Numbered from the stretch's first letter, positions 29,589-46,459 are shown. The stretch is 64,000 nt of DNA from Candidatus Omnitrophota bacterium (GCA_023819375.1 JAMWDI010000001.1:107685-171684); one strand, 5' to 3'. Notes: a model not told the origin generated them from the sequence alone. Numbers and translations: made by a program.

Positions 29589-29608
29589 ATTAAAGGGAGG
29601 GACAAAAA

Positions 29609-29983: not shown

Positions 29984-29993
29984 AAATAAAAAT

Positions 29994-30911
29994 ATGATTT
30001 TAAAAACATGTATTGATTTTAATGAGAAATTTATTAAGATCATTGAAGGTTTTGAAAAAAAATCAAATTTATATATAACAAATATTGGAAAAATTGAAAG
30101 CCCTATTGAAGATCTAAAAAAAATAACAAGTGAAGATGTTGAAATTTTAGGGAATTTTTTAATAGATTATTTCAAAAAAAATAAATTTAAAGGGAAATTT
30201 GGAATATTTACAGTAAATGATGTTGATACAATTTATCATTATTTTGAATTACCTAATCTACCCGAAAATGAAATTGAAAATGCAATAAAATATGAAGGTG
30301 TTCAGTTAATACCAGATTTTATTGAAAATTATGAATATGATTATATTTCCTTTCATATAAACAATAAAAGAAATATTACACTTATTGCCTACCCTAAAAA
30401 TAAAGTTGATTTATACTGTCAAATATTAACAAAAGTAAAGTTGAAACCAATTATAATGGATGTTGCAGGAATTGCACTTTTAAATAGTTTTTTATATTTC
30501 AATCAAACTAAAGATATTGTTTGTTTTCTCAACTTTGGTTTTTCAATTACAAATTGTGTTATTTATTTAAAAGATAAATTTCTGTTCCTCAGAGATATTC
30601 CTGTTGGATTAAAAAACTTAAAAGATAAAGAGTTAATAGAGGAACAGATAAATGAGTTAAGCGAAGAAATAAATATTTCTATAAAATATTTCCAGAATAA
30701 AGTTGGTATTCCTGTTAAAAAAATTTATCTTACAGGATTGGAAAACCAAATTCCTGAAATTAAAGAAAAAATTGAAAGAAATTTAGAACTTCTATGTGAA
30801 TATTATAATCCATTTTTTTATCTTCCAGAAAACGCAATACTTTCTGAGATAAAAAAAGAAGGATCATTTTATTCTACGTGTTTTGGATTATTAACACGAA
30901 AAATAATATGA
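29994..30911 (+). CDS. pilM: Type IV pilus assembly protein PilM-like (actin-fold)
   Basis: 305 aa, position and sequence pattern consistent with PilM; ATGA overlap with the following gene. Confidence 0.6.
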   Translation: MILKTCIDFNEKFIKIIEGFEKKSNLYITNIGKIESPIEDLKKITSEDVEILGNFLIDYFKKNKFKGKFGIFTVNDVDTIYHYFELPNLPENEIENAIKYEGVQLIPDFIENYEYDYISFHINNKRNITLIAYPKNKVDLYCQILTKVKLKPIIMDVAGIALLNSFLYFNQTKDIVCFLNFGFSITNCVIYLKDKFLFLRDIPVGLKNLKDKELIEEQINELSEEINISIKYFQNKVGIPVKKIYLTGLENQIPEIKEKIERNLELLCEYYNPFFYLPENAILSEIKKEGSFYSTCFGLLTRKII

Positions 30912-31498
30912 TTGAAATAAATATTTTGAAAAAGAGATGGGAAAAATATAGAAAAAAATTTTTAATTGTTAAAATAGTTATTTATTATTTTGCAGGTTTA
31001 ATTTTAATTTTTTTCTTATGTTCGGTCATATTTTTTTCAAATAAATTTATAATAAATGGCATTAAAAAAGAAATTAAAACTCTCGAAAACAAAATAGCGG
31101 CAGAAAAAAATCTCATTGAAAACATAAAAGAAATTAATGCAAAATTACAGACTCTTTGTAAAAAATGCTCTTTATATGAAGATGAATATAAAAATAGGTT
31201 ATTATGGAGTAAAAATTTAGCGGTAATTTCTGAATCAGTACCATCTGGTATGTGGATAAGTAAACTTTCCTACCAAAGGGCATTCTCTGAAAGCGAAAAG
31301 AATATTACAATTATTGTTGAAGGCTTTATTTCTCCTTATTATATCAAACCAGAAAAAGGTTGTTTAATTTTTATCAATAATTTAAAAGCAAATGGAAAGA
31401 ATCTTTTTGACAAAGTATTACTTAGTGAAATAACAAAAGGATTAAAAGAAGATAATGAGGTTTATTATTTTAAATTTGAAATTAAGGTAAAAAAATGA
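30908..31498 (+). CDS. pilN: Type IV pilus assembly protein PilN-like
   Basis: Start placed at ATG 30908 (MIEINILKKR), overlapping the pilM stop. Single N-terminal TM helix then coiled-coil/periplasmic domain. Confidence 0.5.
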   Translation: MIEINILKKRWEKYRKKFLIVKIVIYYFAGLILIFFLCSVIFFSNKFIINGIKKEIKTLENKIAAEKNLIENIKEINAKLQTLCKKCSLYEDEYKNRLLWSKNLAVISESVPSGMWISKLSYQRAFSESEKNITIIVEGFISPYYIKPEKGCLIFINNLKANGKNLFDKVLLSEITKGLKEDNEVYYFKFEIKVKK

Positions 31499-32025
31499 AA
31501 GGATCACCAACTTTTATTAAAAAATGGGTTTTATGGATAATTTTAAGTTATGTTTTTTTTATAAGCCTATTTTTGGTTTTTGTTTTTATTCCTCAAAGAA
31601 ATCAAATTTTCAAATATAAAACCGAGAAAAATTTACTTGAATATAATTATTTAAAATTAAAAAATAATCCACAATTTTTACGATCAATAAAAGATTTAGT
31701 TGAAATTGCAGAAAATAAAATTTACAATTTTGAGTGGTTTACTTTTTATGACGATCCCAATATTGCTCTATATGATTATTTAGAAAATCTATCCTCACAA
31801 GCAGGAATTGAAATTATTTCCATAAAAGGCATTCCAGATAAAAATGAGTTATATTATCTCTGGGAAGTAAAATTACAAGGAGATTTCAAAAATTTTGTCT
31901 CTTTTGTTTATCTTATTGAAACTGGAAAAAAATATTTGAAAATTGAAGAAATAGAAATTATTTCAGGAGAAAAAGGCGAAAGTTTTTATAATTTAAAACT
32001 TGCAGGGCTGAGAGGAATAAAATAA
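31495..32025 (+). CDS. pilO: Type IV pilus assembly protein PilO-like
   Basis: 176 aa, single N-terminal TM helix, ATGA overlap with pilN, conserved position in the pilMNOPQ order. Confidence 0.5.
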   Translation: MKGSPTFIKKWVLWIILSYVFFISLFLVFVFIPQRNQIFKYKTEKNLLEYNYLKLKNNPQFLRSIKDLVEIAENKIYNFEWFTFYDDPNIALYDYLENLSSQAGIEIISIKGIPDKNELYYLWEVKLQGDFKNFVSFVYLIETGKKYLKIEEIEIISGEKGESFYNLKLAGLRGIK

Positions 32026-32029
32026 AAAA

Positions 32030-32539
32030 ATGGAGAGAAAAAAACTAACTTTACTTGTTTTAACTATAGTTTTAATACTTCTTTGGGCATGGCAATTAAA
32101 ACCAAAAAAGAAGAAAATAAATATTGAACCTATAATTGAAGAAAAAGAAATTATTGCTGGAATTAATTTAAGAGAAATAGAAGAAAATTTTTCAGAAATA
32201 AAGAAAAAAATAGTTGAAATTGAAAATATTAATAAAGCCAACATTGGAAAGATTACAATTCAAAAAAATCCATTGAAACCCTGGATTTTAAGAAAAGAAT
32301 CTCTAACAAAAGAGGAGAAAGAACCTGAAAAACCCAATTTTAAAATATCTGGAATTGTTCAAGGTAGCAAAAAATCTTATGTAATAATTGATAATGAAGT
32401 AAAAGAAGAAGGAGAAACAATTGGAAATTTTATAATTTTTAAAATCTACCCCGAAAAAGTTATTTTGAAAGATATGACTGGAAATTTTTTTACCTTAAAT
32501 TTTGAATTTGAACAAGGAGGAAACAATGAAAAACAGTAA
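32030..32539 (+). CDS. PilP-like pilus assembly protein
   Basis: 169 aa, N-terminal hydrophobic anchor, C-terminal beta-rich region (FKISGIVQGSKKSYVIIDNE). Positioned before the secretin. Confidence 0.4.
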   Translation: MERKKLTLLVLTIVLILLWAWQLKPKKKKINIEPIIEEKEIIAGINLREIEENFSEIKKKIVEIENINKANIGKITIQKNPLKPWILRKESLTKEEKEPEKPNFKISGIVQGSKKSYVIIDNEVKEEGETIGNFIIFKIYPEKVILKDMTGNFFTLNFEFEQGGNNEKQ

Positions 32540-33848
32540 GAAATTAACCCTTTTTATTCTTTTTTTATTGATAGGAATCCTTTGTTATTGTGAAGAAAAA
32601 TTAACAATTACTTTTTATCAAACAAAACTTGCTCATGTTTTACAGATATTGAGTAAAAAAACAGGTATAAAAATAATAACAAGTAGTGAATTAGGAGAAA
32701 AACCAATAAGTGCATATCTGGAAAATGTAACAGGAGAAGAAGCAATTGATTCTATATTAAAAGCAAATGGATTATATAAAGAAAAACTTCCAGATAGTGA
32801 TGTTTATATAGTTAAGGAATTTAAAGAAACGCCAAAATTAATATCTGAAGTTATATTTTTACAATATTCAAAAGCAGAAGATCTCGGAAAAGTTTTGACA
32901 CCACTGTTAAGTAAAAATGGGAAAATAATAATTGATACAAGAACAAATAGTTTAACAATTCAAGATACAGAAGAAAATTTGAATGATTTGAAAAGAGTTA
33001 TAAGTTTACTTGACAGAAGTATTCCCTGTGTCCAGATTGAAGCGGTTTTAGTTGAATTGACAGAAGACGGGCTTAAAGATCTTGGAATTAAATGGAATGT
33101 TGAAGCCACTTTGACAGGAGGGGCAAAAGATGTAACTTTTCCATGGATGGGACCTTCTTTAGAACATGAAATTGTGAATCCAAGACAAGGCACAATAACT
33201 GGACAAGGAGCTGTCGTTTCTACTGGACCTCAATTTATTCTTGGTACTTTATCTTTTCAAGCACTTACTGCTACTTTAAAATTACTTGAGGTTAAAGGAG
33301 AGGCAAACATTCTTGCAAATCCAAGAGTGACGACTTTAAATGATACACCTGCAACAATAAAAATAACAAAAAATATGGCAGTTGCTGAAAAAGTCATTTA
33401 CACATATGCAACAGCAGGAACAATGGCTCCTACTACAAAAGAACCAATTTTTGCTGAAGTAGGTGTGACATTAATTGCAACACCTCATGTAAATGAAAAA
33501 GGAGATATAATTTTAGAAGTTGAACCAACAGTTTCTTCAGCAGAAAGATCGCCATTTTTTGCTGAAGCAGTTGACACAAATATAAGAACTGCAAAAACAA
33601 AAGTTAAAGTAAAAGATGGAGAAACAATTGTAATAGGAGGACTTTTAAGAACAGAAAAGACCAAAAACAGCACAAAAGTTCCAATCCTTGGGGATATTTT
33701 TCCTTTCCTTTTTAAAAACAAAACACAAACAAATAAAAAAACAGATCTTGTAATATTCTTAACTCCAAAAATAATAACGGAAAAAGAGTTAAAAGAAATA
33801 GTGGAAAAAGAGAAACAAAGATTTGAAGAGAAAGATGAAAAAAAATAG
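32526..33848 (+). CDS. pilQ: Type IV pilus secretin PilQ
   Basis: Start placed at ATG 32526 (MKNSKK) with GGAGG upstream. Secretin C-domain motifs (GETIVIGGL, VPILGDIFPFLF, LVIFLTPKII). Confidence 0.85.
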   Translation: MKNSKKLTLFILFLLIGILCYCEEKLTITFYQTKLAHVLQILSKKTGIKIITSSELGEKPISAYLENVTGEEAIDSILKANGLYKEKLPDSDVYIVKEFKETPKLISEVIFLQYSKAEDLGKVLTPLLSKNGKIIIDTRTNSLTIQDTEENLNDLKRVISLLDRSIPCVQIEAVLVELTEDGLKDLGIKWNVEATLTGGAKDVTFPWMGPSLEHEIVNPRQGTITGQGAVVSTGPQFILGTLSFQALTATLKLLEVKGEANILANPRVTTLNDTPATIKITKNMAVAEKVIYTYATAGTMAPTTKEPIFAEVGVTLIATPHVNEKGDIILEVEPTVSSAERSPFFAEAVDTNIRTAKTKVKVKDGETIVIGGLLRTEKTKNSTKVPILGDIFPFLFKNKTQTNKKTDLVIFLTPKIITEKELKEIVEKEKQRFEEKDEKK

Positions 33849-34227
33849 TGGATATTCACTTGTTGAAATTTTAGTTTCAATTTTAATTTTAACAATAGGA
33901 ATTTTTGGAACCCTTTATTATTTTTTTTACAGTCAAACAAATTTAAACTTAGAAAGGCACAGAAGAACAGCATTGCAAATTGCTCATTCAAGAATTGAAT
34001 TCCTTAGAACTGTAAATTATAATAATCTTATGGATTATGTTGAAAATGGGGTAGAAGTTGATATAGATGAAATTAAAGGAAGAAGATTTACAATAATTGA
34101 AGATATTAATGATCCTGAAGATGCAGATACTAATCCTGATTATAAAAAAATAACAGTTAAAGTTGTCTGGTATGAAAATAAAAGAAATAATGAAGTAGTT
34201 TTACGAACTTTAATAGCGCCATGGTAA
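33823..34227 (+). CDS. Minor pilin / pseudopilin (prepilin-type N-terminal methylation domain)
   Basis: 134 aa with G-YSLVEILVSILILTIGIFG class III signal. Confidence 0.6.
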   Translation: MKRKMKKNSGYSLVEILVSILILTIGIFGTLYYFFYSQTNLNLERHRRTALQIAHSRIEFLRTVNYNNLMDYVENGVEVDIDEIKGRRFTIIEDINDPEDADTNPDYKKITVKVVWYENKRNNEVVLRTLIAPW

Positions 34228-34469
34228 AAAAAAGTGGATTAACTATTATTGAAATGATTGTTGCATTAGTAAGTGGAATTGTTATTATCTTAACTGTTGG
34301 ATATATTCTTTATTATAGTAATAAAACATATAGAAGAGAAGAGAAAATTATGGAATTAAAAAGAGAAGCAGTGTTTGGTGTCAGATTTATAGAAAGGAAA
34401 ATAAGAGAAAAGAAACCAGAACAAATTGAAATTCAGGAATCAGGAAGAAAATTAATTATTAAAAAATAA
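34221..34469 (+). CDS. Minor pilin-like protein (prepilin-type N-terminus)
   Basis: 82 aa with G-LTIIEMIVALVSGIVII class III signal. Confidence 0.5.
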   Translation: MVKKSGLTIIEMIVALVSGIVIILTVGYILYYSNKTYRREEKIMELKREAVFGVRFIERKIREKKPEQIEIQESGRKLIIKK

Positions 34470-34473
34470 AATA

Positions 34474-34502
34474 TTGACAAAATAATTTCAGTAGGGTATT
34501 AT
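34474..34502 (+). promoter_or_regulatory. Internal consensus promoter (TTGACA, 17 nt, TATTAT) within the pilus locus
   Basis: TTGACA at 34474-34479, TATTAT at 34497-34502, AGGGGGAA Shine-Dalgarno at 34511-34518, TTG start at 34521. Confidence 0.5.
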
Positions 34503-34520
34503 TTTTAAAAAGGGGGAAAT

Positions 34521-35009
34521 TTGAAAAAAAGTTATTTATTTTTAACTGAAATATTATTACTTACTTTTATACTTGCAGGATGTGAATGTGGTCCTGGAAT
34601 ACCAGAAGAACCAATTGATAGACCTGAACCAGAATTACCACCACCTTCTCCACCTACTCCACCACCTTCTACTACTCAAGATGAATATTTCCAACTTGAA
34701 GGGAATAATCTTGTTTATTTTGATGGAAAAAATAAATATTATTTAATAAAAGGAAAAGTTGAAAGTGTAAAATTTGAAAAAGTAAAAGGAGATGGGAATT
34801 CTTATTATATAAGTGTAAATTTAAAACTAAAGGATGGACAAATAATAACCAATCTGGATTCAATAATTGCCTTAAGGAACATAAACAGAACTGTAAATTC
34901 GGGAACATCTTCAGGTGGTTCAGTTGATCCAGGTGGAGGTACTTCTCCACCACCTAATTTTGAACCAATAGAACCACCAGAAGTTGGCCCAGTAATACCA
35001 CCATATTAA
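34521..35009 (+). CDS. Lipoprotein with proline-rich linker (pilus-locus associated)
   Basis: 162 aa, TTG start. Lipobox LAGC, Pro-rich tracts (PPPSPPTPPPS; C-terminal PPPNFEPIEPPEVGPVIPP). Confidence 0.5.
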   Translation: MKKSYLFLTEILLLTFILAGCECGPGIPEEPIDRPEPELPPPSPPTPPPSTTQDEYFQLEGNNLVYFDGKNKYYLIKGKVESVKFEKVKGDGNSYYISVNLKLKDGQIITNLDSIIALRNINRTVNSGTSSGGSVDPGGGTSPPPNFEPIEPPEVGPVIPPY

Positions 35010-35010
35010 A

Positions 35011-36009
35011 ATGAAAAAAGGGATTGCTTTAATTTCAGTAGTAATGATTGTTATGATACTTACATTAATGGGTCTTGCTTTTTTGAATATGTCTGGTCTT
35101 GAAAATATATTATCTAAAAGACAAAATTTTTATTTAAAAGCCCTTAATATTGCAGAAGCAGGACTTGAAAGAGCCTTGTGGAAATTAACGAAACAGCCTA
35201 ATTGGAGAAGTGGATGGAATAACATTTCTTTTGATGATGGGTATTATAAAGTAACTCTATCAGATCAATCAGATGGAACAATCTTAATAATTTCTACTGG
35301 ATATTGTAAAAATATAAGTAAGACAGTAAAAGCAACTGTAAGAGTTTCGTCTTCCTCATCTTCTCCTTCGATATCTTTTACATTAGGAACATCTTTGGGT
35401 AATCTTGGAGATTTTCCAGGATCTTATGGAGACATAGGACAAAGTTTTACAACTGGCTCATCTCAAATAAAGGTTGCAAGAGTGGAAATGCAAATAAAAA
35501 AGGACAACCCAAACGTAAGTGATATTTATATGACTATAAGAAGTGGAAGCACAGTTGGTCAAATTTTAGGAACAAGCAATATAATACCAAATTCTCAAAT
35601 TCCTTCTGGAAATGCTTTATGGATTTCTTTTAATTTTGATCCCCCTGTTTTACTTCAACCAAATACAAAATATTATTTAAGATTATCTTCAATTCCGCCT
35701 TCTACAAATCCATATTCAGGAGCACAAGGTAAGATACACCTTGTCTATGCAAATCCTTCATATAGAAGAGTTGGAGGAGGACATACGAGTAGTGATATAG
35801 GAGATGGATTACCAAGTTATGATGAACCTGGTTTTGTTGAAGTAAGTCCGTATGTATATGGTGAAGCATATAGATATATAGGAAGAAACAATAATCCATC
35901 ATATCCAGGTGAAGTTTTAAATCATGATTTTAATTTCAGGATTTTTAGTACTTCAAGTGGAAGCGTAAACATAATAAACTGGACTGAAGAACCATACAAT
36001 AATTTTTAA
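35011..36009 (+). CDS. PilX-like minor pilin / pilus-associated protein
   Basis: 332 aa. N-terminal PilX_N-like hydrophobic segment (GIALISVVMIVMILTLMGLAFL), Ser-rich tract. Confidence 0.5.
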   Translation: MKKGIALISVVMIVMILTLMGLAFLNMSGLENILSKRQNFYLKALNIAEAGLERALWKLTKQPNWRSGWNNISFDDGYYKVTLSDQSDGTILIISTGYCKNISKTVKATVRVSSSSSSPSISFTLGTSLGNLGDFPGSYGDIGQSFTTGSSQIKVARVEMQIKKDNPNVSDIYMTIRSGSTVGQILGTSNIIPNSQIPSGNALWISFNFDPPVLLQPNTKYYLRLSSIPPSTNPYSGAQGKIHLVYANPSYRRVGGGHTSSDIGDGLPSYDEPGFVEVSPYVYGEAYRYIGRNNNPSYPGEVLNHDFNFRIFSTSSGSVNIINWTEEPYNNF

Positions 36010-36011
36010 TT

Positions 36012-37148
36012 ATGTTTACTATTTTCATTCCATATAGAATTTGTCCACTTGGGGCTCATATTGATCATCAAAAAGGGAAAGTCCTTGGAATTACTATTGA
36101 TAGAGGAACTATTCTGAAATTTGAAAAAATAGAAGGAAAGATAAAATTAAAAAGTATAAATTTTAATGAAGAAGTTGAATTTGAAATCAATGAAGAATTG
36201 GATAAAGAGGGAAAATGGTTTGATTTACTTAAAGGTTGTGTTTATATATTAAGAGATACTTTCAAAATTAAGAATGGAATTAAAGGAGAAATTCTGGGTC
36301 AACTTCCAAGTGGTGGCATTGGTTCCTCAGCAAGTTGTGGTCTTGCTTATCTGCTTGCTCTTGAATATGTAAATAACTTAAATATTCCTAAAGAGGAAAA
36401 CATTTTTTTATTTCAAAAAGTAGAAAATGAATATCTTAATGTTAAAAGTGGAATTCTTGACCAGTCAACAATTTTATTAAATAATAGTGACAAAAATTCA
36501 ATACTCTATCTTGATTGTAGAGATATAAAATATGAAAACGTTAAATCCAAAAATGAGATTGATTATTCTATTGTTATGGTCTACTCAGGGATTGAGAAAG
36601 TATTGCATGATACAGGCTATAACAAAAGAGTTGAAGAATGTAAAATGGCAGGGAAGCAAATTTTAGAATTTTTGGGCAAAAATTATGAAGGAGATATTTA
36701 TTTGAGAAATATTGATAAAGAGGTTTTTTTAAAATATAAAGAACAATTGCCAGAAAATTTAAGAAAAAGGGCTGAACATTTTTATAGTGAAATGGAAAGA
36801 GTTGAAAAGGGAATAGAATTTTGGAAATCAGGAGAAATAAAAGAATTTGGGAAATTAATTAAAGAATCTGGAGAAAGTTCAATAAAAAATTATGAGTGTG
36901 GAGGAAAAGAATTGATTAAAATTTATGAAATTCTAAATTCAATTAGGAATGTTTATGGGGCAAGATTTTCAGGGGCAGGGTTTCGTGGCTGGTGTTTTGG
37001 ATTTATTAAAAATGAAGAAAATGTAAAAAAAGAAATTAAAGAAATATTAGAAAATGAATATTTAAAGATTTTCCCACAATATAAGGAAAAATTTAAGATT
37101 ATTTTTGTGGATAAAAAACTTTCAATAGATATTAAGTCATTTATCTAA
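36012..37148 (+). CDS. GHMP kinase, galactokinase-like
   Basis: 378 aa. Galactokinase-type N-terminal signature (RICPLGAHIDHQKG), GHMP ATP-binding motif PSGGIGSSASCGLA. Confidence 0.7.
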   Translation: MFTIFIPYRICPLGAHIDHQKGKVLGITIDRGTILKFEKIEGKIKLKSINFNEEVEFEINEELDKEGKWFDLLKGCVYILRDTFKIKNGIKGEILGQLPSGGIGSSASCGLAYLLALEYVNNLNIPKEENIFLFQKVENEYLNVKSGILDQSTILLNNSDKNSILYLDCRDIKYENVKSKNEIDYSIVMVYSGIEKVLHDTGYNKRVEECKMAGKQILEFLGKNYEGDIYLRNIDKEVFLKYKEQLPENLRKRAEHFYSEMERVEKGIEFWKSGEIKEFGKLIKESGESSIKNYECGGKELIKIYEILNSIRNVYGARFSGAGFRGWCFGFIKNEENVKKEIKEILENEYLKIFPQYKEKFKIIFVDKKLSIDIKSFI

Positions 37149-38147
37149 TAAGATTTTTGGAACAACTTCTGAATTTTCAATAAACTCTGGAAATTTCCTT
37201 TCAACAAAAACTCTTCTTAAATTATTAACTGTAAAGTCCCCCATTTTTTTAATTGTCTCATAAGTATACCTTCCTAAATGAGGCATAATTATTACATTTT
37301 TAAACTTCAAAAGTGGATTATCTTTTAATATTTGTTTCATCTCAATTGCATCTTCTGCATATCCCCCGATTTTTCCTGATTTGAGATACTTTATAAGACT
37401 TTTTTCATCTATTAAATCTTTATGAGACGTATTAACAATTATAACTCCCTCTTTCATAATTTCAAATTCTTTTTCTCCTATCATATGATAGGTTTTTTCA
37501 TTTAAAGGGCAATGAAAAGAAATAATATCACAATTTTTACAGATATTTTCTAAACTGGAAGGCATTGCACTTCTTTTTATAATTTCTTCTTCTGTAAGTA
37601 ATGGATCATACGCATAAACATTCATTCCAAAGCCATTTTTTAAAATTTCACAAACTCTTGTTCCAACATTGCCTATCCCCAAAAGTCCTACGTTTTTATC
37701 TTTTAATTCAATTCCAACCAGTTCTATTCTTCTTCCCCATATTTCATTTTTCATAAACTCATAATTTTGATTTAATTTCCTTGCCATTAAAAGTATTAAT
37801 CCCACTGTATATTCAGCCATGGCATTTCTTTGTATCTCAAGTGGAAATCTACAAACTATTATTCCAAATTCTGTTGCAGATTTTATGTCAATATTTGAGT
37901 CTGCTATACCATGTCTTGAAATAATTACAAGTTTTTTCAAATTTTCAAGAATATTTCTGGAATAATAAGGTGAAAGTCCTATAATTAATCCATCAAAGTC
38001 AGATAATTCTTCAATTATTCTTTTTTCAGAAACATCGGAAGGAAAATTAATTCTTTCAACTTCTGAAAATTCTTTTAATTTTTCAATATGCTCAGGATAA
38101 ATTATCCCAAAACTTGTAGAATTAACTATTGCAATTTTATACTTCAT
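37137..38147 (-). CDS. D-isomer-specific 2-hydroxyacid dehydrogenase family protein (NAD-binding)
   Basis: Track ORF 37137..38174; start placed at ATG 38147 (MKYKIAIVNS) with AAGGAG Shine-Dalgarno. Rossmann GLLGIGNVG; overlaps the LarA-like gene. Confidence 0.7.
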   Translation of the reverse strand: MKYKIAIVNSTSFGIIYPEHIEKLKEFSEVERINFPSDVSEKRIIEELSDFDGLIIGLSPYYSRNILENLKKLVIISRHGIADSNIDIKSATEFGIIVCRFPLEIQRNAMAEYTVGLILLMARKLNQNYEFMKNEIWGRRIELVGIELKDKNVGLLGIGNVGTRVCEILKNGFGMNVYAYDPLLTEEEIIKRSAMPSSLENICKNCDIISFHCPLNEKTYHMIGEKEFEIMKEGVIIVNTSHKDLIDEKSLIKYLKSGKIGGYAEDAIEMKQILKDNPLLKFKNVIIMPHLGRYTYETIKKMGDFTVNNLRRVFVERKFPEFIENSEVVPKILLDK

Positions 38148-39405
38148 TTTTATCTCCTTTTTTATAAAGTTCATCTATGTCAGGGATATAACCATCTTTT
38201 CTTCTATACAGAATTTCTCCTGCATTTTTTACAACTAAAATTCCCTCATTTTCTTTATTTTCAAATTCTTCTATTTTTATAAGGTTGTAATCCATGTAAC
38301 CCAAGTTAACTTTTTTACAAATTTCTTCAGAAATTGAGGTTGCAAGTATAACTTCAATCCTTGGTTTTTCAATTCCATTAATATATGTTCCTATCCCTTT
38401 CACATGAGTTGAATGAGCAAGTATACATCCCGGATAATTTTTAAACTTATTCCATTGTTTCAAAAAATAATCTCTCGTGTGATATCCAATTTTCATTAAA
38501 TCTTTTCCATGGGTATACGAAATTTCCTTTACATGGGGTGCATAAATTATTAACTTCCCTCCATCTTCTACAACAGGTTCAAGTTTATACATACATTTTC
38601 CAGCAGTCCATATGTCTTCATACATTTCTGGTGCTATTGAAATTACAAAATTATAACTTCTATCAACATATTTGATATTAATCTGACTTGACAAATCTGC
38701 TGCTTTTTCCCATGCATCTACTTCTCCAATGAATAATCCCATTACTTTTTTTCCCTTTATAACACTACAAATTAACGTCTTTGGGATTTTTATAAAATTT
38801 GCTGCAATATTCAATAAATCTCTTACCGGTGTCTTTTTGAAGCCATTTATTTTTGGATTTGTAATTAATGCTCCAAGCCAGTGAAATTTATTTAGAAATT
38901 TTGGTCCAGAAATTCCCGGAAAAAAATATTTGTATCCACCAGAAAAGCCGACTACCTCGTGAGGAAATACAGGACCGTAGATAATAATTTCATCATAATT
39001 TAAAATCAAGGAATTAATTTCTATTTCTATTTTTTCATCCATTAACCCATTTGTTATTCTTTTCACATCTAATCTTTCAATAACTCCTATTTTGATTAAT
39101 TTTTCTGTTTTATTCCATTCATGTTGATAAATATTAAAATACTTTTCTTCACCATTTAGATGTAAGAAATTTTTTACTTTTTCCTCCGACATAATAGGAT
39201 GTGTCCCAAGTGCAATTAGGAAATCAAGTTTTTTAACTTTTGATGATAAAATATCAATCAAAAATTTAAAGAATAGATATGTTGGACCTGAACGAGTATT
39301 ATCTGGAATTATTACAATTATCTTTTTGTTTTTTAAATCCCTTTTATTAAGTTCTTTTTGGCAGATTTCATATATTTCTTTTTCAGAAAGTTCTTTTGTA
39401 TTCAT
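38137..39405 (-). CDS. LarA-like nickel-pincer-nucleotide (NPN) cofactor-dependent 2-hydroxyacid racemase/epimerase family protein
   Basis: 422 aa. PDNTR motif, ALGTH block, GFSGGYK with a His 17 residues later, consistent with the cofactor-tethering Lys and Ni-ligand His of LarA. Confidence 0.6.
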   Translation of the reverse strand: MNTKELSEKEIYEICQKELNKRDLKNKKIIVIIPDNTRSGPTYLFFKFLIDILSSKVKKLDFLIALGTHPIMSEEKVKNFLHLNGEEKYFNIYQHEWNKTEKLIKIGVIERLDVKRITNGLMDEKIEIEINSLILNYDEIIIYGPVFPHEVVGFSGGYKYFFPGISGPKFLNKFHWLGALITNPKINGFKKTPVRDLLNIAANFIKIPKTLICSVIKGKKVMGLFIGEVDAWEKAADLSSQINIKYVDRSYNFVISIAPEMYEDIWTAGKCMYKLEPVVEDGGKLIIYAPHVKEISYTHGKDLMKIGYHTRDYFLKQWNKFKNYPGCILAHSTHVKGIGTYINGIEKPRIEVILATSISEEICKKVNLGYMDYNLIKIEEFENKENEGILVVKNAGEILYRRKDGYIPDIDELYKKGDKNEV

Positions 39406-39436
39406 TTTTGAATTCTTAGAATTTAGTTATTTTATT

Positions 39437-39847
39437 TTACCTCTTTTTAGCCGCCATATCCACTATTTCGTTAATTAGATAAATTATCTCTTCTATTTTA
39501 GGATCTAAAATTATCCCCAAATCTTTTGGAATTTCTCCATATCTTTTAAGTTTCTCACTTTTTAAGTCATTCAAAATTTCCCATATTTTTGCACATCTGG
39601 AATTGACAATTGCAGTTTCTGCCATTTCTTCTTCTTTAATATTAAATTCTTTTTTTAAATCTTTAAGGACTTTTTTTATTTTACTTATTTTTAACATCAC
39701 TTCTTTTTCGTCAATTTGCTTTTTAATTTTCAAAAAAATTCTTTCCCTTTTCTCAAATATCAATTCAATCTCAATTAAAAGTTCCTCAACTGTTGATAAA
39801 TTGGACAAAAAAACATTTTTAATTAAATCAACTTTTGCCTTTTTCAC
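39437..39847 (-). CDS. Hypothetical coiled-coil protein
   Basis: 136 aa, Lys/Glu-rich heptad-like sequence, no recognisable motif. Confidence 0.35.
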   Translation of the reverse strand: MKKAKVDLIKNVFLSNLSTVEELLIEIELIFEKRERIFLKIKKQIDEKEVMLKISKIKKVLKDLKKEFNIKEEEMAETAIVNSRCAKIWEILNDLKSEKLKRYGEIPKDLGIILDPKIEEIIYLINEIVDMAAKKR

Positions 39848-40428
39848 TGTTTTATTGCTATCAAAAATATTGCTTTTATAAATGAAAATAAAATATATAA
39901 AAATAAAAAAGTCGAAAAAATGTAAAAAGGATTCTTTTGTTTTTTAAATGAAACAATAAAAGGAGTTTCTTTTTTATAAAGCCAATATTCATTTCCAAAT
40001 CTTCTTAAAAGAATTTTTTCTTCAATCATTTTAGAATAAAGAAAAATAAAAATTATTACACCAAAAGAAAGAAAAAGAAAAGAAATATTTTCAAAAAGAA
40101 AACTAAAAGCAAAAAATAAAAATGAATATCCAAGATACATTGGATTTCTACAAAAAGAATAAACCCCTTCTTTTACAAGCATTTGAGGTGGATCATTAGG
40201 CATCATTGTTCCTTTCCCAAATACATGAAGACAATAAATTGAAGAAATTGTAAAGTATAATCCGAAAAACAGATATATTAAAGATACTAATAACTTTATT
40301 ATAATATTTTGAGGAAACAAAAATTGAAATTTTTCTCCTGTAGGAAAAACAACATAAAATAAAATAGGGATAATTACCCATTCCCATAAAACACCAAGAA
40401 AAATATTAAGAATCCTTATTTTTTTCAT
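39844..40428 (-). CDS. Isoprenylcysteine carboxyl methyltransferase (ICMT)-family membrane methyltransferase
   Basis: 194 aa polytopic membrane protein with CRNPMYLGY motif typical of the ICMT/PEMT family. Confidence 0.55.
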   Translation of the reverse strand: MKKIRILNIFLGVLWEWVIIPILFYVVFPTGEKFQFLFPQNIIIKLLVSLIYLFFGLYFTISSIYCLHVFGKGTMMPNDPPQMLVKEGVYSFCRNPMYLGYSFLFFAFSFLFENISFLFLSFGVIIFIFLYSKMIEEKILLRRFGNEYWLYKKETPFIVSFKKQKNPFYIFSTFLFLYILFSFIKAIFLIAIKQ

Positions 40429-40882
40429 TTTTAAATTTTAATATTAAAATATATGAAATTAAAAAAGTCAAAATTCCTCCACAAAAAGCACAAAAAAAAC
40501 ATCCTGTTACAAGTGGTTTTCCAAAAGTTATAATTGAATAATATACAAAACTTTTAATATTTTTAAAATCATGAATAGTAAAATTTGTTTTTGTGTTTAA
40601 AATAAATGACCCAACTTTATAACAAAAATAATAAGTAAAAGGAATTTGATAAGGAATACCTGTGGGTATTGAACCTCCAATGAATGTTGCAATAAAACTT
40701 AAATTAAATAATTTTGAGAATAAATAACATAAAATTGTTTGAAAACCAATTGTTGGGGTAAAACCAATGAAAACTCCTATAGATAAAGAAATAGCAAGTT
40801 TTAAGGGTTGATTTTTAAAAATATTTAATTCTTTTCTCCATTCTTTTTTTAAATAAGATAAACTCACTCTTTTAATATTCAA
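40406..40882 (-). CDS. DUF2062-like small membrane protein
   Basis: 158 aa with Gly/Pro-rich TM segments (GVFIGFTPTIGFQT); often linked to glycosyltransferase loci. Confidence 0.4.
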   Translation of the reverse strand: MNIKRVSLSYLKKEWRKELNIFKNQPLKLAISLSIGVFIGFTPTIGFQTILCYLFSKLFNLSFIATFIGGSIPTGIPYQIPFTYYFCYKVGSFILNTKTNFTIHDFKNIKSFVYYSIITFGKPLVTGCFFCAFCGGILTFLISYILILKFKNEKNKDS

Positions 40883-42179
40883 CTTTTATAACCTCCCATG
40901 GTATAAAATCATAATTTATTCCTCCAATTTTTATGTTTGATGAAAAAAATAGATATTCAGGATATTTTAATTCAGAAATTTTTATTTTAAAACTGACCTT
41001 ATCTTTCAACTTTTCATACTTGAGATCCTTATAAAAATTTGAATTTACAGAGGTTATAAATTCATTTTTTCTTTTTAAGTTTATTTTAAGTTTAGGCATT
41101 TTAGAAAATTCAATGTTCTTTTTAAATGGAAAGAAGTAAAAAACATACTCTGTTGGGCCTAATATTTTAATTTTGTGAATAAATTCGATTTTTAAAAATT
41201 CATCATCTTTTATTAAATTTATATAAAATGGATAAGATAAATTTTTGTAATTCTCAAATTCGGCTTCTTTTTCACTCTCAAAAACAAGATTTTTTGTTAA
41301 AATCAAGTCATTTTTTGTATAAAATATTTCATTTTTTTTAACAAAAGAAAAAAACCATTTTTTTCTAAACATCATTTGAGAAGTAAAACATTCAAGAGAT
41401 ATCTTCTTTTTTTTAACTTCTTCATTACTCAATGGAACAATATATGTTTTAAATAGTAAGAAAATCTCTGGAAGAAATAATTTTTCTGAGTTTTTTAAAG
41501 GATAATTTCTAAAATGAATTAAATAAATGTAAACTTCAGGATTTAACCCTTCTATTTCTAAAAGAGATGCTCTAACAAAATTATAAAGTGCTCTATGATC
41601 AACATTTGTATCAAAAGGAGAAGTTATAAATATTTTAGAAGGCCTAATCTCATTTATTATCTTCTTTATATCTTCTAAAATACTTTCACCTTTATAAGGT
41701 TTCCCAAAAGAGTAATTTTCTTTATAAGGGACATAACTTGCTTTTGTTAAAAAACTTCTAAAAGGTTTTTTATTTTCACCCCAGTAATTTTCCCATATTT
41801 TAAGAGTCCCAAAATCAGGGTAACCAAGAAAAATTAAGTTATTCTCCGAAACTCCGAGAATTTTTGTTGCTTTTATAGATTCCTTTCTTCTAATTTCTCC
41901 TAATTTTATATAATCAGAAGGGTTTAAAATTATCTTTTTTTCATAAATCCTGTAAGGTAATTGATTATGATCTCCATTTGTTAAATAAACAATATAAACT
42001 TCGCCTTTCTTTTTTATTACTTTTTGAATTAACCCTCCACAACCTAAAATTTCATCATCAGGATGGGGAGCAAAAATAATAATTTTTTCATTTTCATTAA
42101 TTTGCAAATTTCTAATACTTCCCCAGCAAAGAGAAATCAATGTTGAAATTAACATTAATATTTTTTTAAAATTTTTCAT
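40872..42179 (-). CDS. PIG-L/LmbE-family N-acetylglucosaminyl deacetylase with C-terminal extension
   Basis: 435 aa. Signal peptide, PIG-L motif FAPHPDDEILGCGG, HxxH-type metal site; about 200-aa C-terminal domain of unknown function. Confidence 0.6.
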   Translation of the reverse strand: MKNFKKILMLISTLISLCWGSIRNLQINENEKIIIFAPHPDDEILGCGGLIQKVIKKKGEVYIVYLTNGDHNQLPYRIYEKKIILNPSDYIKLGEIRRKESIKATKILGVSENNLIFLGYPDFGTLKIWENYWGENKKPFRSFLTKASYVPYKENYSFGKPYKGESILEDIKKIINEIRPSKIFITSPFDTNVDHRALYNFVRASLLEIEGLNPEVYIYLIHFRNYPLKNSEKLFLPEIFLLFKTYIVPLSNEEVKKKKISLECFTSQMMFRKKWFFSFVKKNEIFYTKNDLILTKNLVFESEKEAEFENYKNLSYPFYINLIKDDEFLKIEFIHKIKILGPTEYVFYFFPFKKNIEFSKMPKLKINLKRKNEFITSVNSNFYKDLKYEKLKDKVSFKIKISELKYPEYLFFSSNIKIGGINYDFIPWEVIKVEY

Positions 42180-42181
42180 TT

Positions 42182-43738
42182 TTACTTATGCCTTCCATTT
42201 TTACTTATATCTTCTAAAAATCTCTTCGCTAAAGTAAATCCAGGGTCTATTTCTAATGTTTTATACAAGTATTCAAGCATTTTCTGTTTATCTCCCATAT
42301 CATAATAAACAAGAGCCATTAAAAAATTACTTTTTGGGTCATTTGGTAAAATTTTTAAGTAATCCAATGCCTTTTTATATGCCTCTTTAATTTTTCTTTC
42401 TCTTAAATCTTTTTCTATCCCTTTTGCACTTAAATATCCGAAAATTTTTTTACTCTCTTCAGGAAGTAAATCTCCTGGAATTACATTAAAAAAATAAGCG
42501 AAAAGAAAAGAAAAAATAAAAAATAGAAATGGTTTTAATAGTTTTTTATTATTAAATATCTCCCTTTTAGACCACACAATTAAATAGGAAGAAGTAATAA
42601 AAAAACAGGCTACAGCAGGAAATCTATATCTGTCTGTGATGAAAAATAAAACAACCCATAAAATGTTTGATAATGTAAAAAATATAAAAAGTGAATTTCT
42701 CCTAAAATTTTTAAAAAATAAAAACAATCCAGAAATGCCTAATGGAAAAACAAAACCCAATTTTATAAATGCTATCTTTAAAAAAGGAATTAATTCTTCC
42801 ATTAAATAAACATTCATATTTTGAGGCCACTCATAACTTGTAAAAAAAAGATGAATTTTTCTTAAAAAAAGTTTCCAAAATTGAATAGAAGATGGCGAAA
42901 GAAGATGTCCCTTGGGATAGTGAAAAAGTCCTATTGAATCTGAACTATTACCAATTCTCCAATTTTCAGGACCATTTGAACATATCGGAACAAAAACTTT
43001 TCCAATATACCAATTTCTTATGGTTATAGGTAGTATTACACAACCACTTATAAAAATTAGAATAAAAAATATGAAAATTTTATTTTTAATAGATGACATT
43101 TTTCCAGATATTAATTTTGTTTCAGGATATATTAAAAGCCCTATAAATAAAAATGGTATAAAAATTCCAATTGTAGGTTTAGCAAGAGCAGAAAATCCGA
43201 GTAAAACACCAGATATAATCCACCAGAGAAGATTTTTTTTCTGAAGAGCAATATAAATTGAGGTTATAAAAGAAATATAAAGAAGTGTTATTAAATTATC
43301 ACTTAAAATTGAAGAAGAATAAACTACAAAAGTTCTGTAAAATGCACATAGAAAACATGCAACGATTCCTGTCAAATCATCAACTAATAGTTTACCTAAT
43401 AAATATATAATAAAGCATAAGAAAACATCAAGCAAAATCTGAATAAAATAAATTCCAAATAAGTTTCCTTGAACAAAAAAATAAACCATTGATAAAAAAT
43501 AAGGATAAAATGGAGCCATATAGAATACTTTTCCATCGACATAAAAAGGATGCCTTAATATATCTTCTGCCCATAATATGAATGTTTTTTGGTCATGCTT
43601 ATCCATTATATAGGGGTCAAAATAAACTGTATTTTTTAAGAATATCAAATAAACTAATCTAATAATAAATCCACAAAACAATATTACCCCTACCAATATT
43701 TTTTTCCCATTTCCTATTTTTCTTATCCTTTTAACCAT
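42182..43738 (-). CDS. Polytopic membrane glycosyltransferase (ArnT/PMT, GT39/GT83-like) with C-terminal TPR repeats
   Basis: 518 aa, more than 10 predicted TM helices in the N-terminal two thirds, C-terminal TPR-like repeats. Confidence 0.5.
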   Translation of the reverse strand: MVKRIRKIGNGKKILVGVILFCGFIIRLVYLIFLKNTVYFDPYIMDKHDQKTFILWAEDILRHPFYVDGKVFYMAPFYPYFLSMVYFFVQGNLFGIYFIQILLDVFLCFIIYLLGKLLVDDLTGIVACFLCAFYRTFVVYSSSILSDNLITLLYISFITSIYIALQKKNLLWWIISGVLLGFSALAKPTIGIFIPFLFIGLLIYPETKLISGKMSSIKNKIFIFFILIFISGCVILPITIRNWYIGKVFVPICSNGPENWRIGNSSDSIGLFHYPKGHLLSPSSIQFWKLFLRKIHLFFTSYEWPQNMNVYLMEELIPFLKIAFIKLGFVFPLGISGLFLFFKNFRRNSLFIFFTLSNILWVVLFFITDRYRFPAVACFFITSSYLIVWSKREIFNNKKLLKPFLFFIFSFLFAYFFNVIPGDLLPEESKKIFGYLSAKGIEKDLRERKIKEAYKKALDYLKILPNDPKSNFLMALVYYDMGDKQKMLEYLYKTLEIDPGFTLAKRFLEDISKNGRHK

Positions 43739-43759
43739 TTAACCAATTGTTCAATTGAT

Positions 43760-44077
43760 TCAAAACTTTTTATCTTTTATCTTTTCTACATATTTTTCTA
43801 AAGTATTGAAAATTTTCACAACTGCTTTATCTTTAATAAAATACTTTTTTACATAACTTTCTGTTTCATATCTAACCAAATCTATCTGTCTAAGATTCCT
43901 AAGAGTTTTTGAAATACTCGCAATTGTAAGGCCAAGTTTTTTACTCATTCCAGTAGGAGTCATTTTTCCTTCTATTATTAGCATTTTCATTATCTGATAT
44001 GCTGTTGGATTTCCCAAAACTCTACATATTCTTGATGCTCTATATTCTTTTTCTGGCATTCTTCTTTTCTTTCCCAT
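43760..44077 (-). CDS. ArsR/SmtB-like winged-helix transcriptional regulator
   Basis: 105 aa, wHTH pattern (ASRICRVLGNPTAYQIMKML...LGLTIASISKTLRNL). Confidence 0.55.
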   Translation of the reverse strand: MGKKRRMPEKEYRASRICRVLGNPTAYQIMKMLIIEGKMTPTGMSKKLGLTIASISKTLRNLRQIDLVRYETESYVKKYFIKDKAVVKIFNTLEKYVEKIKDKKF

Positions 44078-44089
44078 TTTACCAATTGG

Positions 44090-45106
44090 TCAAATAATTA
44101 AATCATTGACACAAAGAAAATCAGTTTTATAGTAAGTTACTACGTCTGCAATAATATCTTTTATTGAGTAATTTAAATGGAAATCAACAATTTTTTTTAT
44201 TTTGCTTAAATCAGGAATTCTCTTCATCATGTCTTCAAATCCCTTTTTATAAATATTTTCAGGATTTATAAATTTAATCTCTGATTCACTTTTGGTTATT
44301 TCTTTTATAAGTAAGGCCAGATCCTTTATTTTAATTTCATTTTCACTCCCTATATTAAATACTTCTCCATAACTTTCATCTTTGTAAATTAATTTCAATA
44401 TTATTTCGACTACATCTTTCACATGGATAAAACATCTTGATTGTTCACCATCCCCAAAAACAGTTATAGGTTGTCCTGTTAATGCCTGTTTAACAAAACG
44501 TGGTATAACCATACCATATCTATCTGTCTGCCTTGGGCCAACAGTGTTAAATAACCTTACTATAATAACTGGTAACCCAAATTCTTCCTGAAAAGCAAAG
44601 GCAAGAAATTCATCAATTGCCTTTGCGCAAGCATATGACCATCTTTTCTTTTTTGTTGAACCAATAACTATATCTGCTTCTTCATTAAAAGGAACATTTA
44701 AATTTTTTCCATAGATTTCAGATGTTGATGTTATTAAAATTCTTTTTTTATATTTTGCACATAACTTTAAAACATTACATGTTCCCTCAATATTTACAAG
44801 AATCGATTCAATTGGATTTTCTATAACTTTTTTCACACCTACAATTGCAGCAAGATGGAAAACAAAATCAACTTTTTTTATAAGTTCTTCAAGTATATAT
44901 TCATTTAAAATTGTATCAATGAAAAGAAAAAATTTAGGATTGTCTAAAAGTGTTGAAATGTTTTTTAACCTTCCTGTTGAAAGATCATCTATAACAAAAA
45001 CAGTTTTTCCTTGATTTATAAGTTCCTCTGCAAGATGAGAACCAATAAAGCCACATCCTCCTGTTATTAAAAATCTCTCCATTTTATTCAGATTTTCTAA
45101 CTTCAA
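44090..45106 (-). CDS. NAD-dependent nucleotide-sugar epimerase/dehydratase (extended SDR)
   Basis: 338 aa. Rossmann [11 protein letters not shown], catalytic YxxxK (YACAKAI). Confidence 0.85.
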
Positions 45107-45848
45107 TGCCCTTTGATTTTAAATAATTTTTAATTTCTTGAATTGTAAGGATTCTAAAATGCAGAAGAGATGCAAGTAAAATTGCACTTGCTTTCCCTTC
45201 TACAATCGCTTCATATAAATGTTCAAGTTTTCCTGCTCCTCCAGAAGCAATTACAGGAATATTCACAGATTCACTAACTTTTTTCGTCAATTCTATATCA
45301 TATCCCTCTTGAGTTCCGTCTCTATCTATACTGGTTAAAAGTATCTCGCCTGCTCCTAAATCTTCAACTTTTTTCGCCCACTCAATAACATCAAGTCCGG
45401 TTGGTGTTTTTCCACTTTCAATGTAAACTTCCCATTTATCCTTGTCTATTTTTTTCCCATCAATAGCAACAACTATACATTGACTTCCAAATCTTTTTGC
45501 TCCTTCTTCAATAATTTTAGGATTTCTTACAGCAGAAGTATTTATTGATACCTTATCTGCACCGTTTGAAAGTAAATCTTCTATATCTTTTATTGTGGAA
45601 ATTCCTCCACCAACAGTAAATGGAATAAACACAACATCAGCAACTTTTTTAACAACTTCAACCATAGTTTTTCTGCCTTCAATTGTAGCACTTATATCAA
45701 GAAAAACAATTTCATCTGCTCCTTCTTTGCAATAATAAGAGGCATTTTCAACAGGGTCGCCTGCAATTCTTAAATTTTCAAATTGTACTCCTTTCACAAC
45801 TTTGCCATTTTTTACATCTAAACAAGGAATAATTCTCACTGCAACCAT
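45084..45848 (-). CDS. hisF: Imidazole glycerol phosphate synthase cyclase subunit HisF (or sugar-pathway paralogue)
   Basis: 254 aa (beta/alpha)8 barrel with [16 protein letters not shown] start and phosphate-binding SGGAG, TSID blocks. Confidence 0.8.
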
Positions 45849-46444: not shown

Positions 46445-46459
46445 TATCTTTTTTAAAAA

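Follow-up and report, generated by a model that had tools for sequence, protein, structure and literature searches.

The DNA analysed here is a 64,000-nucleotide (nt) stretch of Candidatus Omnitrophota bacterium (GCA_023819375.1 JAMWDI010000001.1:107685-171684), referred to at its full length as the window. Two adjoining genes on its minus strand are the subject of this analysis: one encodes a 422-amino acid (aa) homologue of the lactate racemase LarA (LarAH, 38137-39405), a candidate hexonate 2-epimerase, and the other, directly downstream, a 336-aa protein with the fold and NAD motif of 2-hydroxyacid dehydrogenases (2HADHs) and a rewired active site (the partner, 37137-38147). A first-pass annotation had described a LarA-like racemase dependent on nickel-pincer nucleotide (NPN) as its cofactor and overlapping a D-isomer 2HADH, and had proposed that the two proteins racemise and then oxidise an unknown 2-hydroxyacid. 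Both open reading frames (ORFs) were recovered where it had placed them (38137-39405 and 37137-38174, minus strand), and the LarAH stop does overlap the partner start, by 11 nt, with the LarAH TAA at 38137-38139 and the partner ATG at 38147. Around the junction (38137-38160) the minus strand reads ...AAAGGAGATAAAAATGAAGTATAAAATT..., with ATGAAGTATAA as the overlap and a GGAGA Shine-Dalgarno sequence inside the 3' end of LarAH, 5 nt ahead of the partner ATG. An alternative first in-frame ATG of the partner at 38174 would lengthen the overlap to 38 nt; gene calls on near-identical contigs use the MKYKI start, giving 336 aa. The corresponding junctions of relatives are a 4-nt overlap (L005, L090 and L010), an 11-nt overlap (L092) or a 2-nt gap (L091). 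The tight coupling of LarAH to its downstream gene was further borne out by a pairing kept in every close relative examined, and translational coupling of the two genes can be predicted with confidence from these arrangements.

Assignment of LarAH within the LarA superfamily

LarAH matched Pfam Lar_N (PF09861) with 77.8 bits (cut-off 23.3), and its best match among solved structures was PDB 4NAR (E 1e-62, residues 8-403), so that its motif matches lie far above chance; the lactate racemases 2YJG and 5HUQ gave E values of 1e-9 to 1e-8 (1.6e-8 for 5HUQ). Residue equivalences were read from an ungapped HMMER alignment to L. plantarum LarA (5HUQ). The motifs PDNTR, ALGTH and GFSGGYK noted in the first-pass annotation were all present and aligned onto functional residues of LarA. 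PDNTR (residues 34-38; 39292-39306, on the minus strand like every LarAH and partner feature given below) contains D35 (LarA D72, catalytic) and R38 (R75, NPN binding), and ALGTH (residues 65-69; 39199-39213) contains H69 (H108, catalytic acid/base). The segment PVFPHEVVGFSGGYKYFFPGISGPKFLNKFHW (38878-38973) holds H149 (H174), the E150-V151 substrate loop of Groups 18-20, K159 (K184, the cofactor tether) and H175 (H200, the nickel ligand); GFSGGYK ends at K159, and PHEVVGFSGGYK carries both H149 and K159. WTAGK (38596-38610) provides W266, the helix alpha-11 signature of Groups 18-20, together with G269 at the position of V297 and K270 (K298, catalytic). On this alignment the proposed cofactor-tethering Lys and nickel-ligand His are indeed K159 and H175; the His follows the Lys of GFSGGYK at a spacing of 16 residues, the same as between LarA K184 and H200, and not of 17 as had been counted. 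D35, R38, H69, H149, K159, H175 and K270 were invariant in 24 aligned relatives, down to 56% aa identity. LarAH is confidently predicted to be a member of the NPN-dependent LarA superfamily that has kept all cofactor-binding and catalytic residues of lactate racemase.

A function as lactate racemase was ruled out, since LarAH scored 65.8 bits against NCBIfam Ni_dep_LarA (NF033504; cut-off 460) and carries Glu-Val (E150-V151) in place of the Phe-Phe substrate loop. Groups 18-20 of the LarA homologues share E-V/S after the catalytic His and a Trp in helix alpha-11 (PMC7583248), and both elements are present in the window LarAH. The structure 4NAR is that of GntE2 (LarAH20) from Thermotoga maritima, for which D-gluconate 2-epimerase activity has been demonstrated (PMC7583248), and the characterised member of Group 19 is Corynebacterium glutamicum GntE1, which interconverts D-mannonate and D-gluconate (Desguin et al. 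2020, PMC7583248). The motifs GPVFPHEVVGFSGG, WTAxK and LAHSTH were all found in the Group 19 sequences of Table S3 of that study (PMC7583248). Over the 20 positions of the Group 19 signature (D R H H E V K H V W T A K G L A S T H R/K), the window LarAH (D R H H E V K H V W T G K C L A S T H K) agreed with the Group 19 mode at 18, the exceptions being the residue preceding the catalytic Lys, which is Gly instead of Ala (likewise in Plabr_2258), and the T353-equivalent position, where Cys takes the place of Gly. BLASTP identities within Group 19 were 49% to Npun_F5335, 49% to Plabr_2258, 44% to Rcas_3031, 40% to GntE1 (over 376 residues) and 39% to a fifth member, and outside it 35% to GntE2 and 31% to Group 18. 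In a neighbour-joining (distance) tree the window clade was nested in Group 19 as sister to the lineage L010, with GntE2 and Group 18 outside. The best NCBIfam match was the Group 18 model NF052594 (putative hexonate epimerase) at 190.4 bits against a cut-off of 500; because GntE2 and five relatives of the window LarAH score alike (164-191 bits), this match marks only the 18-20 supergroup. Group 18 proteins carry GQVVPHEV(I/V)GMAN where the window LarAH has GFSGG, and membership of Group 18 was rejected on this different motif, the 31% identity and the shortfall in score.

GntE1 has all NPN-binding and catalytic residues in common with the window LarAH and resembles it in the series D R H H E V K H V W T x K ... 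L A S T H K/R and in GP(V/I)FPHEVVGFSGG, differing at the two signature exceptions named above. GntE2 shares the catalytic set, WTAGK and the Glu after the catalytic His, but has E-S instead of E-V in the loop and N348 in place of C327, and its gene is followed by a gluconate kinase gene rather than by a 2HADH-fold gene. L. plantarum LarA shares the fold, the Lys tether, the nickel-ligand His, the two catalytic His and the Asp/Arg/Lys residues, whereas its Y294, Q295 and V297 are replaced by W, T and G and its F-F loop by E-V. Taken together, these comparisons firmly place LarAH in Desguin Group 19, the GntE1-type hexonate 2-epimerases, as judged from sequence. The substrate class is therefore not as open as the term "unknown 2-hydroxyacid" had implied, given this placement and the occurrence of relatives in 6-phosphogluconate dehydrogenase (6PGD) and hexuronate gene clusters. 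LarAH is a new member of a known and characterised group, from the lineage Omnitrophota.

The partner and its altered active site

The partner matched Pfam 2-Hacid_dh_C (PF02826) with 169.2 bits and 2-Hacid_dh (PF00389) with 59.5 bits. Its AlphaFold2 model (mean predicted local distance difference test score 93.6, predicted template-modelling (TM) score 0.88) was similar by Foldseek, at TM 0.80-0.87, to GHRB (glyoxylate/hydroxypyruvate reductases), TkrA, McyI and phosphoglycerate dehydrogenase. Active-site positions were assigned from an ungapped HMMER alignment to 1WWK and two MAFFT alignments, all in agreement. In the numbering of a 2HADH review, the catalytic residues are Arg230, Glu259, which supports the His, and His277, and the main-chain amide of Gly73 positions the substrate carboxylate (PMC6303947). 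In the partner, NTSHK (37419-37433) stands for the canonical NT(A/S)RG, placing His242 at the catalytic Arg and Lys243 at the next Gly; DAIEMKQ (37332-37352) stands for DVxExEP, with Lys271 at the catalytic Glu; and RHGIADSN (37893-37916) has Ala82 at the substrate-positioning Gly. The catalytic His is kept as His290 in PHLGR (37269-37283), where a clade-specific Arg293 occupies the position three residues on (His+3), Ala in canonical relatives. The dinucleotide-binding motif GIGNVG (G157-I-G159-N-V-G162; 37662-37679) and VYAYDP with the acidic D181 (37602-37619) are present.

Residue counts were made over 119 homologues of at least 280 aa among 120 listed, dividing the 28 closest from 91 more distant ones (35-48% identical). 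The positioning Gly was found in 91/91 distant and 1/28 closest homologues (Ala in 24), the catalytic Arg in 91/91 and 3/28 (the others including nine N, eight H, three D, three Q and two E), and the catalytic Glu in 90/91 and 3/28. The catalytic His was present in 91/91 distant sequences and in 24 of the 27 closest with a residue at that column, the remaining three (P0145, P0146 and P0149) having Tyr. The NAD-binding Gly, Gly and Asp were kept in all 28. New residues fixed in the clade are Arg at His+3 (23/24), Gln106 (Glu in 91/91 distant homologues), Gly57 and Ala82. The catalytic Arg is described as the most conserved 2HADH active-site residue, and the listed exceptions include a Gln for the Glu in formate dehydrogenases and, in other members, Lys or Trp for the His, with no mention of Arg substitution (PMC6303947). 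The designation "D-isomer 2-hydroxyacid dehydrogenase" can therefore be retained only in part: the fold, the NAD motif and the catalytic His are there, but the catalytic Arg and Glu and the positioning Gly have been lost.

The canonical relatives (P0150-P0240, from Thermoanaerobacter, Dictyoglomaceae and metagenomes) share 38-48% identity and the fold with the partner and, like the GHRB/TkrA 2-ketogluconate/glyoxylate reductases, have in common with it SRHG...N, ...YT, the NAD motif and the catalytic His. They differ in carrying Gly, Arg, Glu and His where the partner has Ala, His, Lys and His, plus the Arg at His+3. Their genes lie in (UxaE)-2HADH-FGGY kinase-6PGD(-SDR) modules, SDR denoting a short-chain dehydrogenase/reductase, in Thermoanaerobacter, on a 104-kb metagenome contig and in Dictyoglomaceae; no LarAH was called in these 15-kb loci, and a fourth contig begins at the 2HADH gene, its upstream side being uninformative. 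In the contexts seen, the rewired 2HADH adjoins LarAH (L103, described below, excepted) and the canonical 2HADH stands without it. Descent of the partner from a canonical 2HADH is strongly indicated by these alignments. Identification of the canonical relatives with T. maritima UxaD was rejected, UxaD being described as a short-chain dehydrogenase (PMC5673643). The partner itself was rejected as a phosphoglycerate dehydrogenase, for which 1WWK is the best PDB match, since Gly-Leu replaces the phosphate-binding Arg-Ser of SERA and neither the catalytic Arg nor the catalytic Glu is left. Pseudogene decay was likewise rejected: the ratio of non-synonymous to synonymous substitution (dN/dS) was 0.09-0.15 for closer pairs of the partner, as for those of LarAH, and intact ORFs were found in about 20 independent contigs. 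The partner is thus rewired rather than decaying, being under purifying selection. For LarAH, dN/dS was about 0.08-0.15 across the clade.

A different lesion of the same triad was observed in another LarAH-linked 2HADH sub-lineage (L111:4538-5539 and L112:1856-2857), which keeps the Arg and has His replaced by Tyr and Glu by Asp (TPYIALYT); here the 2HADH gene stands between LarAH and UxaE.

Gene company, cofactor supply and neighbourhood

A 336/337-aa 2HADH-fold gene always followed LarAH at 78-99% identity (L001-L006, L090-L092 and metagenome loci L093-L101), and the order LarAH-then-2HADH was found in all six window-clade contexts, which come from related genomes and whose synteny is partly inherited. 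Upstream of the pair in this clade are an NDP-sugar epimerase/dehydratase and a PMT_2 glycosyltransferase, with no 6PGD nearby; PIG-L and DUF2062 genes, a gene for a PEMT-like methyltransferase and a small ORF lacking annotation are variably present there. A metagenome scan from the 2HADH side gave 13 orthologous loci (at least 64% identity), 12 of them with LarAH directly upstream. In the sister lineage L010, where each protein shares 64-65% identity with its window counterpart, the order is KduI-SDR-6PGD-LarAH-2HADH. The pair therefore predates its current surroundings and originated in a hexuronate/gluconate cluster.

More widely, at least 8000 database proteins matched LarAH at E < 1e-10, the closest among the matches listed being 99% identical and labelled Candidatus Omnitrophica. 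At least 600 stretches carried the peptide patterns of the LarAH family (one genome per species), 599 being confirmed as relatives, from Omnitrophota, Planctomycetota, Chloroflexota, Atribacterota, Verrucomicrobiota and other phyla. Neighbours were surveyed with our own ORF calls and BLAST clustering in 80 of these stretches together with the earlier loci, 74 of which had a callable LarAH; the main clusters were named by Pfam on one representative each, and the Gfo/Idh/MocA-like and Zn-alcohol-dehydrogenase-like clusters by eye. Within five genes of LarAH, 6PGD was found at 45 of the 74 loci, an SDR at 34, an unannotated protein of ~300-355 aa at 30, a kinase of the phosphofructokinase (PFK) family at 16, UxaE at 15, a 2HADH-family protein at 11, UxaC at 8 and KduI at 7. 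The T. maritima operon containing GntE2 reads gnd-uxaR-uxaE-uxaD-gntE-gntK (PMC3750489). The resemblance of the family context to this operon, shared by the relatives of the window LarAH, supports a routing of hexuronate-derived hexonate into the pentose-phosphate pathway. The published neighbours in the Group 19 row are LarB/LarE and LacI (PMC7583248), unlike the rewired 2HADH-fold partner and envelope-glycan genes that accompany the window LarAH.

Group 19 neighbours across phyla (L010-L089; for example L042:8820-12580, L064:817-1962, L013 and L017) include 6PGD and the PFK-family kinase. The unannotated ~300-355-aa neighbour is a DxDG protein without a Pfam match, and a PdxB-type 2HADH with DUF3410 and an intact triad sometimes flanks Group 19 LarAHs. 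The 6PGD, PFK-family kinase and PdxB-type neighbours, together with the 120 mM KM (Michaelis constant) of GntE1 for D-mannonate (PMC7583248), suggest that phosphorylated hexonates, in particular 6-phosphomannonate, may be the native substrates of Group 19.

As to cofactor supply, the window encodes a LarE, the sulfur insertase of NPN biosynthesis, at 1493-2293 on the minus strand (SGGVDS at residues 23-28; C94, C97 and C174), which scored 329.5 bits against NCBIfam TIGR00268 (cut-off 150). Its CXXC-C pattern is that of the [4Fe-4S]-dependent LarE characterised in T. maritima (PMC9283937). This gene, which had been called the only NPN-biosynthesis-like one of the window, is a full LarE, ~35 kb from the pair. 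LarB or LarE lies beside LarAH in only a third of the cases in the group19 row of Table S1 (PMC7583248), so that separation from LarAH is normal. Near the 74 family loci a LarE BLAST gave one weak partial match, and motif searches for LarB and LarC gave none. The window LarE belongs to a minus-strand run (991-5739) with a Fur/PerR-like regulator (991-1410), a pseudopilin-like protein (2543-3277), NifU (3249-3638), quinolinate synthase NadA (3674-4585) and cysteine desulfurase NifS (4570-5739). The precursor of NPN is nicotinic acid adenine dinucleotide, to which the NadA pathway leads, and [4Fe-4S] LarE is fed by a desulfurase in vitro; the LarE-NifU-NadA-NifS grouping may therefore be functional.

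In the window the pair closes a 12-gene minus-strand array running from 47398 to 37137 with gaps of at most 31 nt. Its housekeeping genes are HisH, HisF and a stand-alone PP-loop subunit of GMP synthase. After these, the array at 39844-47398 encodes an SDR like the ArnA C-terminal part, an ArsR-type helix-turn-helix protein, a PMT_2 protein (ArnT-like GT-C), a PIG-L deacetylase with a C-terminal part of ~230 aa that is unannotated, a DUF2062 protein and a PEMT/ICMT-like methyltransferase (weak LmtA match), which together look like a lipid A or envelope-glycan modification set. A Lys/Glu-rich ORF of 136 aa (39437-39847, minus strand) lies upstream of LarAH across a 31-nt gap and has no Pfam or NCBIfam match; it is kept at 63-78% identity in most window-clade loci and is missing in L091 and L092.

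Downstream, a convergent galactokinase-like GHMP kinase gene (36012-37148, plus strand) overlaps the 3' end of the partner gene by 12 nt. The kinase scored ~205 bits, below every galactokinase cut-off, with P. furiosus GalK as best PDB match (E 2e-40). It adjoins the pair only in window-clade loci and was absent from the 74 wider family loci, and its link to the pair is uncertain. A scan for promoters and terminators (35800-45300) gave counts equal to those of shuffled sequences (60 versus 60.9 and 3 versus 2.7), and an operon boundary could therefore not be drawn. Rfam at gathering thresholds over the whole window gave only one tRNA-Leu, with no riboswitch near the pair.

Three further regions of the window were recorded. 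The plus strand at 25213-36009, up to the GHMP kinase, encodes a complete type IV pilus/type II secretion-like cluster (two T2SSE ATPases, T2SSF, pilins, PilM, a secretin and a PilX-like protein), which likewise adjoins the LarAH region in several Omnitrophota relatives. A 397-aa protein (6155-7348, minus strand) had a sub-threshold match to TIGR03287, "methanogenesis marker 16 metalloprotein" (128.5 bits, cut-off 364), and sits in a bacterial Fe-S/cysteine region beside a ferredoxin-domain protein and CysK. At 23401-24345 (minus strand), adjoining an arginase-family gene, is a CLP1_P P-loop domain of the eukaryotic/archaeal Clp1 polynucleotide kinase type (109 bits).

Proposed function and rival explanations

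As a whole, the findings are explained best, and with moderate confidence, by a Group 19 hexonate C2 epimerase made together with a neofunctionalised partner that is no longer a standard 2HADH. By analogy with the family, LarAH would remove a hydride from C2 of the hexonate onto the nickel-pincer cofactor, His69 and His149 serving as acid and base on opposite faces of the substrate. A transient 2-keto intermediate would be held on the cofactor, and return of the hydride to the other face would interconvert the manno and gluco configurations. As substrate one would expect D-mannonate/D-gluconate or something closely derived from it, the 6-phosphate for instance; the product, judging from the context of relatives, would feed 6PGD. 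The window LarE would help to make the cofactor, with LarB and LarC lying elsewhere in the genome. The partner, presumably made in a fixed ratio with the epimerase, retains its NAD-binding site and catalytic His, but the Arg that polarises the substrate, the Glu that activates the His and the positioning Gly are gone, and Arg293 is new. Most probably it has been neofunctionalised into an NAD(H)-binding oxidoreductase whose ligand pocket is rewired and which still acts on a hexonate-derived compound of the same pathway. In the window lineage the pair would have moved from a 6PGD/KduI/KduD cluster to the end of the 12-gene array with envelope-glycan genes.

Several observations weigh against this interpretation. 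That Arg293 might reach the ligand and replace the lost Arg is conjectured from GRHPR, whose His+3 residue contacts the substrate. The old Arg position is variable (N, H, D, Q or E), as could equally be expected of a partner without catalytic function. The pairing has one exception, the metagenome contig Ga0164318_10008604 (L103:5791-6786), in which a rewired 2HADH (Arg replaced by Glu) directly follows 6PGD and LarAH is absent from the whole 9.9-kb contig. The high KM of GntE1 leaves even the native substrate of Group 19 in doubt. The pathway context is borrowed from relatives, since the window has no 6PGD, KduI, UxaE, UxaC or FGGY kinase; a tblastn search of it with these, SDR and PfkB gave only an unrelated PFK at 34% identity. 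Finally, neither LarB nor LarC was found in the 64-kb window, searched as non-antisense ORFs of at least 120 aa against Pfam or NCBIfam (for the pilus/secretion region, through a precomputed Pfam table of 99%-identical contigs), nor in the 10 kb past its left end on a contig with an identical LarE, where only oxidative-stress genes were present.

The main alternative, a tentative one, is that the partner is a catalytically dead pseudo-dehydrogenase, retained as a subunit that binds NAD(H) and has a structural or regulatory role in the epimerase, for example by linking epimerase activity to redox state; CtBP is a 2HADH-fold NAD sensor. The lesions of the triad differ by sub-lineage, with Arg lost in most members and His replaced by Tyr in three, and the old Arg position appears unconstrained while the NAD-binding residues are complete and selection is purifying; the translational coupling, moreover, suggests a fixed stoichiometry. 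On the other hand, the fixation of new pocket residues (Arg293, Gln106, Gly57 and Ala82) points to a redesigned ligand site and not to mere decay, His290 is kept in nearly all members, the L103 protein persists without an adjacent LarAH, and the proposed interaction between partner and LarAH is purely hypothetical.

Racemisation of an unknown 2-hydroxyacid by LarAH followed by oxidation of the D-isomer by a normal, D-specific 2HADH, as first proposed, is unlikely. The two strong Pfam 2HADH domains, the NAD motif and catalytic His, and the tight coupling of the genes speak for it, as do the canonical relatives of the partner, which are probably sugar-acid 2-keto reductases since they lie beside gluconokinase and 6PGD. 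The simple D-2-hydroxyacid oxidation step is nevertheless not supported, because the partner is without the catalytic Arg, the catalytic Glu and the positioning Gly. These changes, to His, Lys and Ala in the window protein and to N, H, D, Q or E at the Arg position across the LarAH-linked clade, affect among others the residue regarded as the most conserved in 2HADH active sites, and the specificity of LarAH, as a Group 19 member, is not unknown. A canonical D-2-hydroxyacid dehydrogenase is accordingly an unlikely description of the partner, as far as its residues indicate.

It is distinctly improbable that the pair serves envelope-glycan or lipid A modification rather than catabolism, for instance by making or epimerising a sugar acid for the products of the upstream ArnA-like, ArnT-like (PMT_2), PIG-L and LmtA-like genes. 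The pair does close the same-strand array that holds the envelope genes, and two sets of relatives with different arrangements, at 78-81% identity, share the order NDP-sugar epimerase - PMT_2 - (small ORF) - LarAH - 2HADH. These loci all belong to one narrow clade, however, so their synteny may be inherited and not selected, and the presence of HisH, HisF and the GMP synthase subunit in the array is as expected in a compact genome. An envelope role is thus weakly supported, because the L010 pair sits in a KduI-SDR-6PGD catabolic cluster and the putative substrate residues of LarAH are unchanged between both contexts.

A switch of the partner from NAD to a nickel-pincer dinucleotide or mononucleotide would have precedents, as NAD(P)-dependent scaffolds have evolved to use nickel-pincer cofactors in the aldo-keto reductase NphT, which uses the mononucleotide NPMN, and in an ornithine cyclodeaminase that uses the dinucleotide NPAD (PMC13524815 and its reference 22). 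Like these, the partner is an NAD(P)-superfamily protein with replaced catalytic residues and a genomic tie to the nickel-pincer system; its adenosine-binding half is intact and its nicotinamide/substrate half replaced (His242, Lys243 and Lys271 in the window protein), and the rewired state was seen after LarAH in all loci but one. The known cases differ in lying beside larB/C/E and in having a conserved His with or without a Lys. The switch is considered a long shot because no His/Lys pair is conserved across the partner clade at the remodelled positions.

That LarAH is inactive in this organism for want of the nickel-pincer cofactor, as the failure to find LarB and LarC in the window and the 10 kb past its left end might imply, is least credible of all and very improbable, given the full-length CXXC-C LarE, the invariant cofactor ligands, the low dN/dS of LarAH and the scarcity of LarB/LarE beside other Group 19 genes.

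No report was found of a conserved coupling of LarAH to a 2HADH-fold protein in which the catalytic Arg and Glu are missing; an Arg-less clade is not mentioned in the 2HADH review (PMC6303947), and COG0111 and COG1052 are both absent from the supplementary tables of the LarA survey (PMC7583248). LarAH is in itself an ordinary finding, one more Omnitrophota member of a large described group. If 6-phosphomannonate is the native substrate of that group, the missing gene for the 6-phosphomannonate 2-epimerase of Lactobacillus suebicus, an activity reportedly measured in that species, would be supplied, and the Group 19 neighbours could reveal the genes of its mannonate kinase/6-phosphomannonate 2-epimerase pathway. 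The 2HADH sub-clade that follows LarAH, having lost its Arg/Glu/Gly core under purifying selection, is either a pseudo-dehydrogenase that partners LarAH or an enzyme that has been redesigned. The partner is a well-defined candidate for testing, following the 2025-26 reports of nickel-pincer cofactors in NAD(P) scaffolds; were the cofactor switch true, the 2HADH fold would become a further nickel-pincer scaffold, co-expressed with a LarA-type epimerase.

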